Source: an uncultured Chloroflexia bacterium (GTDB lineage: Bacteria > Chloroflexota > Ktedonobacteria > Ktedonobacterales > Ktedonobacteraceae). Taken from it: a stretch of 64,000 nucleotides of DNA. Shown piece by piece: positions 12,837 through 14,812 of the stretch. The notes beneath the pieces are model-generated. The model made no database searches and had not been told where the DNA came from. It saw only the letters and a program-made list of their open reading frames with translations. Within the stretch, counting starts at the first letter, position 1. The number at the start of each line of letters is the position of its first letter. A program made the translations under genes and the position numbers. The stretch covers positions 1 to 64,000 of the forward strand of contig CAVPEB010000014.1 in NCBI GenBank assembly GCA_963702765.1, given 5' to 3'.

Positions 12837-13149
12837 TTGGGTTGTTATCTATTATACAAGGTGTATCAAGTCTCTCTAACTGAGAGTCGCTTAAACTTAT
12901 TCTTGCAGGCCTGCGGCCTGCTATAAGGAGAGATTTTAAGCGAGGGACACCCTCGCGCTCCCGGCAAGGAGTGTTGTCTGTCAATGAAAGTTGATCCCGA
13001 AACGGCATTTGCTCAATTGTTGAAGAGAGACTCTCTATGATAGCGGCTTCAGTATATCATACTAACGCAGAAGAAGCATAGGAAACCCGTACCAATGATG
13101 CACTTGCTAGAAATGGTGGCTATTGTTACAATAGCGGCTAGAGAATAGA

Positions 13150-13475
13150 TGAATGAACAGGTGATTTGGAGTTTTGGTGCAGGAACCCGTCCCTTTGAAA
13201 GGGACAGACTTGCTCATGCAGGTGAGCGAGCCTCATTCTTGACCAGTCTCGGCCACCAGTCTCAAAGGCGACTGACGGGGCTCCGTTCGGGAAGAAATTA
13301 GGTACGTTGGGATGCTTCACCAGTCCCAACCGCTACGGGAGTACGTTAAACAGGGTGACGGGGTCAACCCAGTGCGTGCTCCGTGAAACCTTCCACGAAC
13401 GTTGACGAGGTGAGCATTACCCGTGTAAACGGAGGCCCTTCTGGGCAAAAAAGGAGAATGTATGAAGCGAGGTGT
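13150..13475 (+). ncRNA. Candidate omega-RNA (guide RNA scaffold for IscB), immediately upstream of and overlapping the iscB start
   Basis: ~320-nt non-coding region rich in stem-loops (gtccctttgaaagggac; ttggga..tcccaa; gggtgac..gtcaaccc), at the position where IscB omega-RNAs are encoded. Confidence 0.4.
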
Positions 13476-14784
13476 TTGTCATAGATACCAACAAACAACC
13501 CTTGAACCCGCTGCATCCGGGGCGTGCCCGCCTGCTCTTGAAACAGGGCAAGGCGGCGGTCTATCGCAGGTATCCTTTCACGCTGATTCTCAAGCGCGCC
13601 GTGGATAAGCCTCATCTTGAGCCTCTGCGCGTCAAGATCGATCCGGGGAGCAAAACCACCGGCATCGCTCTTGTCAATGATGGAAGCTCCGAAGTAGTGT
13701 GGGCAGCGGAACTGATGCACCGGGGAGAGCAGATCAAGCGGGACATGGACAAACGTCGTGCGGTGCGCAAGAGCAGAAGGCAACGCAAAACCCGCTACAG
13801 GAAGCCGCGCTTCGACAATCGCCACAAACGAAAAGGGACGCTCCCGCCATCGCAAGAGAGTCGCGTGTGGAATGTGCTCACATGGATTCGTCGCCTCATG
13901 CGTCTCTGCCCATTGGGTGCTATCAGTTTAAGAACTCGTCCGCTTCGATACCCAGGCCTTAGAGCGTCCAGACATCGAAGGCGTGCAATACCAGCAAGGC
14001 ACACTGGCAGGCTACGAGGTGAGAGCGTATGTGCTCTTGAAGTGGAATCACCGATGCGCCTACTGTGATGCCCGCCAGGTCCCGCTCGAACTCGATCATC
14101 TCCACCCTAGAGCTAAGCTCGGTTCCGACCGCGTCAGCAATCTCGTGGCAGCCTGCAAGCCATGCAACCAGCGCAAGGGCAACCAGGACATTCGTGCATT
14201 CCTGAAGGAGCAGCCGCAGCGATTGGCGCGCATTCTGGCTCAAGTCAAGACCGCCGTTGCGGGATGCAGCGGCAGTCAATGCGACGCGATGGGCACTGCA
14301 TGAGCGCCTCAAGGCGTTCGGTCTCCCCGTGGAGTGTGGCAGCGGCGGCTTAACCAAGTTCAACCGCATCACGCGTGACTTGCCCAAGGCGCACTGGTGT
14401 GATGCTGCCTGCGTCGGGAGGAGCACACCGGAGCACCTCGTCATCAAGCACGTCGTGCCGCTGCACGTCACGGCGACGGGGCACGGCTCAAGACAGATGT
14501 GCCGCATGGACGAGTACGGGTTCCCGCGCACCAAACCAAAGGGAGCCAGGCGCGTCAAAGGCTTCCAGACGGGCGACCTGGTGCGTGCCGTCGTGACAAG
14601 CGGGACCAAGCAAGGCACCTATGTGGGCAGGGTGGCTGTGCGTACCCGCGGGGTCTTCAACATCAAGACGGCGCAAGGAACCGTCACCGACATTCACCAT
14701 CGTTTCTGTACGTTAATAGCTCGTAGCGATGGATACAGTTATCACTCTAAAAGAAAGGTTGCGGCGCTTTCTCCAGCAGCCTAA
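13472..14784 (+). pseudogene. iscB: iscB, the RNA-guided RuvC/HNH OMEGA nuclease (Cas9 ancestor), disrupted by 2 frameshifts and 1 in-frame stop (ORFs 13472..14068, 13983..14303, 14257..14784)
   Basis: PLMP-like N-terminus (..KQPLNPLHPGRARLLLKQGKAAVYRRYPFTLIL..), RuvC-I (RVKIDPGSKTTGIALV), Arg-rich bridge helix (RRAVRKSRRQRKTRYRKPRFDNRHKRKG), HNH (CAYCD..DHLHPRAKLGSDRVSNLVAACKPCNQRKGN), RuvC-III (HWCDAACVG) and a C-terminal TI-like domain (GFQTGDLVRAVV..GTYVGRVAVRTRGVFNIKTAQG). Confidence 0.85.
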
Positions 14785-14812
14785 AGGCATGGGGGTACAC
14801 GCACCGCGGTTT

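Follow-up and report, generated by a model that had tools for sequence, protein, structure and literature searches.

IscB nucleases and their omega-RNAs form the RNA-guided OMEGA systems, of which KraIscB-1 and OgeuIscB were reportedly described by Altae-Tran et al. in 2021. We analysed a 64,000-nucleotide stretch of DNA from an uncultured Chloroflexia bacterium of the family Ktedonobacteraceae (contig CAVPEB010000014.1, hereafter the window), in which positions 13179–14812 are almost certainly an IscB/omega-RNA transposon and an ordinary member of this known family of RNA-guided nucleases. KraIscB-1 stems from Ktedonobacter racemifer and has the class Ktedonobacteria in common with the window IscB. 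As in KraIscB-1 and OgeuIscB, a PLMP-like segment is followed in order by RuvC-I, a bridge helix, RuvC-II, HNH, RuvC-III and a putative C-terminal domain. The catalytic residues are likewise shared, and a structured RNA of ~270 nt, with the guide at its 5′ end, lies directly 5′ of the gene. In contrast to both systems, the open reading frame (ORF) of the window IscB is interrupted three times as given. The repaired protein aligns weakly with OgeuIscB (93 bits) and over residues 1–320 only, and its similarity to the solved IscBs, including those of structures 7xht and 7utn (Kato 2022, PMC9640706), is low.

The RNA component matches the HEARO family of Rfam (RF02033) over its full length and shares its helices, its pseudoknot region and its location upstream of an HNH ORF. 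Unlike the Rfam model, it carries two extra 3′ hairpins (13421–13446) and lacks base 2 of the scaffold. Hairpins of this kind beyond the model are general in the family, in which ~98.5% of iscB loci are non-autonomous and iscB rarely lies beside tnpA; the end on the omega-RNA side is the transposon right end in the TnpA convention, the guide is encoded beyond the element and depends on external transcription, and cleavage takes place at the donor joint (Meers et al. 2023, bioRxiv 10.1101/2023.03.14.532601). The ISGst IscB elements of Geobacillus stearothermophilus resemble the window element in being non-autonomous insertions of the IS200/IS605 type with an omega-RNA bounded by the right end, a guide taken from flanking DNA and a conserved motif abutting the other end. 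In both cases, the empty site combines the guide match with the motif and would form the substrate in the model of donor-joint cleavage. The window element differs from ISGst in its motif, which is RTGR (ATGG) rather than the complement of TTCAT or TTTAT, in that its insertions abut start codons, and in that no cognate TnpA was identified.

Similar motifs are known from the nickases of the sister family IsrB, whose target-adjacent motifs are NTGA, NTG and NTGG, the last being that of BbIsrB (Hirano et al. 2022, PMC9581776). In IsrB loci, too, the last omega-RNA hairpins lie beside the Shine-Dalgarno sequence of the nuclease gene, but IsrB has no HNH domain, whereas the window protein does. Cas9 of type II CRISPR systems shares the RuvC/HNH core, and weak matches to Cas9d and Cas9 structures were obtained; in contrast to Cas9, the window IscB has no REC lobe, CRISPR array or cas1/cas2, and its single guide is set by the site of insertion.

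An IscB element with exactly defined ends

The window element is a non-autonomous insertion sequence of the IS200/IS605 type, an OMEGA system carrying iscB and its omega-RNA. Two relatives lacking the element, L177 (syntenic) and L178, run straight through the joined flanks. Their junction, GGAGTATTGGT followed directly by ATGGCATC, corresponds to window position 13178 fused to 14813; in a fuller reading, TTGCTA, 17 nt and TACAAT precede GGTGATTTGGAGTATTGGT, which is joined to ATGGCATCATC, so that the sequence across the junction reads TTGGT and then ATGGCATCATC. Because of these empty sites, both element ends are fixed to the base. The element is 1,634 nt long, equal to the copy in the genome L086, and has a G+C content of 57.7% compared to 49% across the window. 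Comparison with the empty sites revealed a precise insertion without a target-site duplication, and terminal inverted repeats are absent, as in IS200/IS605-type elements. In non-orthologous copies, likeness starts sharply at GTCAGG and stops after a T-rich run, before ATGG, GTGG or ATGA.

The insertion point lies between the Shine-Dalgarno sequence with its spacer (ending in GGAGTTTTGGT) and the ATG of a conserved host gene (Table 1). About 780 homologues of this gene were found at E ≤ 1e-10; among the 120 matches listed, nearly all are 164–165 amino acids (aa) long and cover the whole query. The protein P0185 is a 175-aa variant of this host gene product. A Pfam search of the 165-aa host protein returned no family match.

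Subterminal palindromes are present at both ends. The omega-RNA end opens with a hairpin at 13189–13205. At the distal end, the outer stem of a nested palindrome pairs 14761–14767 with 14801–14807 and the inner stem pairs 14773–14781 with 14786–14795, leaving the iscB stop codon (14782–14784) in the loop. In an alignment of 24 sequences, 5 of the 15 pairs of this palindrome show compensatory changes (for example GC/AU at 15:9, AU/UA and AU/CG), and we infer that it serves as the hairpin bound by TnpA. The original prediction, made from the letters of the window, had taken the omega-RNA side for the left end, which in the TnpA convention is the right end (Meers et al. 2023). It had further proposed that hairpins at 12905–12921 and 12951–12963 mark a transposon end. 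These hairpins exist but lie in host DNA, as L177 and L178 carry host sequence up to 13178. The two structures, GCAGGCC-TGC-GGCCTGC (12900–12926) and GAGGG-ACA-CCCTC (12951–12963), are part of a host intergenic region upstream of a divergent protein kinase gene.

The prediction that tnpA is missing held up. No ORF with an HUH...Y motif is present in the window, a tblastn search of the window with an approximate IS608 TnpA query gave nothing convincing (best E 0.15), and the genes called on the syntenic contigs L086, L087, L094 and L096 include no Y1_Tnp. The element is therefore non-autonomous.

The omega-RNA, its guide and the target-adjacent motif

A scan of the window with Rfam covariance models yielded a full-length HEARO match in the non-coding stretch upstream of iscB, at 13177–13420 (112.6 bits, E 1e-23, model positions 1–211 of 211; gathering score 83 bits). 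This is the sole Rfam match at gathering level in the 64-kb window, and it ends 41 nt upstream of the iscB ATG, in the same orientation. A single copy of the element is present in the window. In an alignment of 22 regions from relatives at 50–99% protein identity, 33 of the 51 predicted pairs show compensatory double changes, and the window copy retains every helix. The two 3′ hairpins beyond the Rfam model, at 13421–13432 and 13435–13446, are followed by AGGAG and ATG. One scaffold base, a T, is missing (GTCAGG reads G-CAGG), which costs 10 bits relative to the score of 122.7 in L086 and L087.

Upstream of GTCAGG, non-orthologous copies are unrelated, as expected of a variable guide. The guide segment of the window, of which 16 nt are given in Table 1, may extend further in the 5′ direction and includes the GGAG of the host gene's Shine-Dalgarno sequence. 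In the empty sites of L178 and L177, this 16-mer directly precedes ATGG (with 1–3 mismatches), and it is unique in the window. The motif is conserved beyond this locus: RTGR opens all 27 of 27 distinct insertion flanks, as ATGG in 19, GTGG in 5 and ATGA in 3.

Three frame breaks separate iscB into three ORFs

Three consecutive plus-strand ORFs (13472–14068, 13983–14303 and 14257–14784, in frames 2, 0 and 1) match Pfam RRXRR (1.3e-56) and HNH (1.3e-10). As foreseen from their translations, together they rebuild a complete IscB. The repaired protein of 439 aa matches the NCBIfam profile NF040563 (guided_IscB) with 445.9 bits over positions 1–314 of 314 (cut-off 175 bits), which, with the HEARO match directly upstream, bears out the predicted arrangement of the locus. 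It shares 95% identity with P0001, an intact 439-aa protein, and aligns end to end, across the RuvC and HNH motifs, with relatives of 438–439 aa. Its motifs comprise PLNP, RuvC-I (D60), an Arg-rich bridge helix (93–124), RuvC-II (E157), HNH (H212/N235) and RuvC-III (H310/D313), followed by the C-terminal domain. The residues D60, E157, H212, N235, H310 and D313 are invariant in the alignment of IscB relatives, and D60, E157, H212, H310 and D313 align with the OgeuIscB (PDB 7xht) motifs IDPG, E, HxxPR and HxxD. The closest solved relatives are TbaIscB, HfmIscB and OgeuIscB. Residues ~320–439, where a domain interacting with the target-adjacent motif would be expected, are conserved among close homologues and lie outside every sequence match to solved IscBs.

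To place the breaks, we aligned the DNA to that of L081, L082/L084 and L001 and to the near-identical contigs L086 and L087, which carry sister copies of the element (L086:12432–14065 and L087:6429–8062). L081 is a more distant orthologue, 95% identical, which is intact and occupies the same insertion site. The first break is an A inserted at 13465/13466 (ATGAGC to ATGAAGC), which cuts the ATG at 13462, served by the ribosome-binding site (RBS), off from the downstream ORF. This is the shift that the original prediction had suspected before the annotated start; intact relatives begin at the equivalent ATG, with MS(K/E)VFV. The second break combines a C-to-T change with an inserted A at 13928–13931 (AGTCTAGAAC to AGTTTAAGAAC), and the third is a C inserted at 14251/14252 (GACGCC to GACCGCC). 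All three predicted breaks are thus present in the sequence, but the third lies 10–15 nt upstream of its estimated position. At the middle break, a TAA had been read in place of an expected Gln. The closest intact copies have Leu (CTA) here, and the TAA is visible only in the shifted frame; we rejected it as a nonsense mutation. The three insertions total +3, and the last ORF regains the frame of the ATG at 13462.

The original prediction had stopped at these breaks. Three further lesions were found: the T lost at 13179/13180, which is base 2 of the omega-RNA scaffold (compared to L086 and L087), and, at the distal end, a 2-nt deletion with 2 substitutions at 14808–14811 (three-way alignment with L086 and L087). 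With three bases inserted and three deleted, the length of the L086 element, 1,634 nt, is kept. A single uninterrupted iscB ORF is absent from the window as given and present in the orthologous L086 and L081 copies. Because the window has three +1 frame breaks where its orthologues are intact, iscB in the window sequence is a pseudogene or a mis-assembled gene.

A proposed cycle of excision and return

On the basis of established knowledge of IscB and TnpB, we propose how such an element would be expressed and maintained. A transcript from the putative host promoter (~13104–13132) would run through the host 5′ untranslated region (UTR) and the omega-RNA scaffold and on into iscB and the host gene; the promoter-like site is thus predicted to serve all of these, the guide included. 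Both of its hexamers are kept at an equal distance from the start codon in L177 and L178. The final ~16 nt of the host leader (13163–13178) would become the 5′ guide of the omega-RNA, and IscB, translated from the ATG at 13462, would then bind the scaffold. Excision by a TnpA acting in trans would rejoin GATTTGGAGTTTTGGT and ATGG, creating the exact target of the guide together with its putative motif. IscB may then cleave the rejoined site, and the element would return through recombination with a sister copy that still contains it.

Assembly error or recent inactivation

Two near-identical, syntenic contigs from other samples allow the lesions to be judged. Across window positions 10725–17700, identity to the window is 99.0% for L086, whose 439-aa iscB is intact, and 99.3% for L087, which carries a single, different inserted A (AGTCTAGAAAC) 2 nt from the middle lesion of the window. 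Across these three genomes, the element shows no isolated substitution, and the window alone has 6 indel events: each of its lesions is an indel of 1–2 nt or a cluster of indel and substitution (2 of the 6). By comparison, 22 kb of flanks contain 95 substitutions private to the window and 3 indel events, so that element and flanks differ in their spectrum of changes (Fisher p 5.5e-8). On the window branch, measured against L081, we counted 9 synonymous and 7 non-synonymous changes (omega ~0.24), compared to 8 and 7 on the intact sister branch, and neutral evolution is rejected (p 0.006). Names of the form contig_N given to the relatives' contigs suggest long-read assemblies. We favour consensus error of the assembly, in a repeated and poorly polished region, because the lesions are of the indel type only, one spot was hit differently in two assemblies, and breaks in shared genes fall at different places from one assembly to another. 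The six lesions are, we consider, fairly likely to reflect such error and not biology. The source organism thus probably carries an intact, active iscB copy like that of L086.

Several points weigh against this account and against the mechanism joined to it. The case for an artefact is indirect. The window is clean outside the element (3 indel events per 22 kb), and a uniform error rate therefore cannot explain six lesions in 1.6 kb; we ruled it out on these clean flanks and on the intact long ORFs elsewhere. For an artefact, one must consequently assume something more, for instance that a multi-copy repeat was poorly polished. A frameshift at 4131 in one copy of an FtsX-type permease gene is common to L087 and may be real, in which case the lineage would hold genuine pseudogenes. 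On the side of the mechanism, a promoter consensus scan found 2 sites against 1.9 expected, which by itself is no better than chance, and, as no tnpA was found, mobility in the source genome is hypothetical. With these points taken into account, we regard the statement that unites element identity, mechanism and an artefactual origin of the lesions as reasonably probable.

Decay and error were both envisaged in the original prediction, and both remain as explanations, but decay can only mean very recent damage. If the lesions are real, the same element with the same mechanism underwent a very recent, strain-specific inactivation, which we see as a genuine though lesser possibility. The copy would then show how a non-autonomous element begins to decay once it has run out of empty sites for homing, and its omega-RNA, if functional, would act only with IscB from another copy. 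Consistent with this, the density of lesions is six times higher in the element than anywhere else compared, as if selection on a dispensable element had been released, and the other broken genes of the window (the FtsX tandem duplicate and an RHS-like gene) are likewise duplicates or dispensable. That one FtsX frameshift recurs in an independent assembly and that the unique flanks have a normal ratio of substitutions to indels, indicating an assembly that is not generally poor, points the same way. However, six indels without an isolated substitution are far from known bacterial mutation spectra, as the Fisher test above brings out, and all three coding lesions are insertions. Bacterial mutation is usually deletion-biased. 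The independent, different insertion 2 nt away in L087 resembles an error hot spot, the window branch and the intact sister have the same omega (0.24), and iscB is uninterrupted in a sister genome at 99% identity. Much less can be said for an old, decaying pseudogene, the relic of a once-expanded family whose omega-RNA is kept only by inertia. The split of the gene into three ORFs by three frameshifts and the lack of a nearby tnpA might suggest it, yet the copy shows neither an in-frame nonsense substitution nor a large deletion, and the repaired protein is 95% identical to that of the intact same-site orthologue L081, with a ratio of non-synonymous to synonymous rates (dN/dS) of 0.19. Lesions apart, the element matches the intact L086 copy base for base, every catalytic residue and omega-RNA helix is retained, and the 7-kb syntenic alignment excludes L086 being a non-orthologous copy. 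Because the substitutions on the window branch reject neutrality, long-term decay is excluded, and we consider the old-pseudogene explanation very unlikely. More improbable still is that programmed ribosomal frameshifting or transcriptional slippage yields full-length IscB from the sequence as given. All three shifts are +1 and sum to +3, and the last ORF is in the frame of the ATG at 13462, but the sites have neither a slippery motif nor a stimulatory structure, uninterrupted ORFs of 438–439 aa are the rule among thousands of relatives that need no such shift, and the orthologous L086 and L081 copies lack all three insertions.

A separate observation concerns the element as a whole. Lesions aside, it is identical base for base in the three genomes, and the flanks differ at ~1% of sites. 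About 9–16 differences would be expected in the element, and the probability of finding none lies between 1e-4 and 1e-7. The cause may be gene conversion between copies, a tract of recent recombination or an artefact of the consensus.

Insertion directly upstream of host start codons

The position of the window element at a start codon recurs in its relatives. The RTG of the flank begins an ORF of 90 codons or more at 19 of 24 informative, independent sites, compared to 17.9% of control RTGR sites within the same flanks (p 1e-10; the loci were window 14813, L001, L082/L083 and the right flanks of L098–L173). Eight of the ten such ORFs tested are N-terminally complete, co-oriented host genes. 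The genes hit include those for an aldehyde dehydrogenase, a short-chain dehydrogenase, a protein kinase, an HhH-GPD glycosylase and a solute-binding protein whose N-terminus resembles a twin-arginine (TAT) signal, among others. The opposite flank, where known, often ends in a properly spaced Shine-Dalgarno sequence (window, L001, L003, L121 and L125). Given the RTG-opened ORFs and these Shine-Dalgarno flanks, we conclude that elements of this clade sit between the RBS and the start codon of a host gene.

Among distant IscB loci, mostly cyanobacterial, the pattern was seen in some only and is not general. We found no description of start-codon placement of IscB elements in the literature searched. 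The original HEARO paper of Weinberg et al. in 2009 is said to have noted integration next to ATGA or GTGA. That insertion just 5′ of host start codons is a strategy of the Ktedonobacteraceae IscB clade, and not chance, is a tentative idea that we consider rather doubtful.

Other features of the window

The features of the element and its host site are collected in Table 1.

Table 1 Coordinates of the IscB element and of the adjoining host features in the window
Feature	Position	Strand	Description
Host promoter-like site	13104–13132	+	−35 TTGCTA (13104–13109), 17-nt spacer, TG-extended −10 TACAAT (13127–13132)
Omega-RNA guide	13163–13178	+	GATTTGGAGTTTTGGT, 16 nt shown; host DNA
Omega-RNA scaffold (HEARO RNA)	13179–13446	+	Rfam RF02033 match and covariation; 5′ end is the transposon end
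iscB RBS AGGAG	13452–13456	+	Read from sequence
iscB original start ATG	13462–13464	+	Read from sequence
iscB coding region	13462–14784	+	439 codons once three 1-nt insertions are removed
Distal nested palindrome	14761–14807	+	Left end in the TnpA convention; iscB stop codon in loop
Last element bases	14808–14812	+	Boundary from empty sites; CGCGTGTTCT reads CGCGGTTT in the window
Candidate target-adjacent motif ATGG	14813–14816	+	Host DNA; holds host start codon (14813–14815)
Host gene	14813–15310	+	Membrane protein, 165 aa; RBS pushed 1,634 nt upstream by the insertion

Several genes outside the element are broken in one or more of the assemblies. An SbcC/Rad50-like ATPase gene beside a NurA nuclease gene (49239–52377, minus strand) is split into 823 and 225 aa by an inserted T near 49978. 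Its orthologue on the L087/L096 contig is split elsewhere (715 and 309 aa, by a T inserted near window position 50213), and the L086/L094 contig has an unbroken copy of 1,038 aa. A glyoxalase-like gene and the FtsX-type permease gene lie in a 3.6-kb tandem duplication at 94.8% identity (3098–6672 and 6675–10251). Through 1-nt insertions, the permease gene is split into 832 and 163 aa in copy A (one break) and into three ORFs in copy B (two breaks); the copy A frameshift at 4131 is the one common to L087, and L086 has a single intact gene of 1,061 aa. An RHS/YD-repeat-like coding block of ~6 kb (~40921–46900, minus strand) consists of more than 10 short ORFs. The whole block is missing from the syntenic contigs L094, in which the next gene comes directly after the CpXC gene, and L096, which has other genes in that place.

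Between convergent genes downstream of the element, a near-perfect hairpin at 15361–15436 has stems of 24 bp and 6 bp (−57.3 kcal/mol, z −9.5). It is single-copy in the window, and a 42-nt indel relative to L086 adjoins it (15441–15483). Weak Rfam microRNA matches at 15360–15442 merely reflect this long hairpin and were dismissed. The sister genomes L086 and L087 contain, nearby, TnpB-bearing elements of the OMEGA type, namely a TnpB with a serine resolvase (IS607-like) and further TnpB (L086:999–2854 and 19879–20834; L087:14475–14831), which are absent from the matching places of the window.

Implications

By itself, the IscB locus adds little, as such elements are abundant (8,000 IscB relatives scored at E ≤ 1e-20) and the mechanism of the family is already established. 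Its value lies in being a fully resolved natural case, with an occupied site, intact orthologues and empty sites, in which guide, motif and ends are known exactly. The donor-joint model can thereby be tested on a clean substrate in Chloroflexota. It also gives reason for caution: frameshifts in repeated elements of metagenome-assembled genomes can mimic pseudogenisation, which near-identical assemblies reveal.

If insertion at start codons is a strategy of this clade, the motif would be the start codon itself (RTGR) and the guide would be the ribosome-binding region of the host gene, so that the host promoter and 5′ UTR would give the transcription that the omega-RNA cannot give itself. The host gene, parted from its Shine-Dalgarno sequence, would rely on read-through and on re-initiation from iscB, whose stop codon lies 28 nt upstream of the host start, inside the conserved hairpin. 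Host-gene expression would then be tied to the element, and loss or decay of the element could be costly. From the placement, ATGG/GTGG is the predicted motif of these compact nucleases in this clade; the placement also suggests a tighter coupling of element and host expression than has been described.

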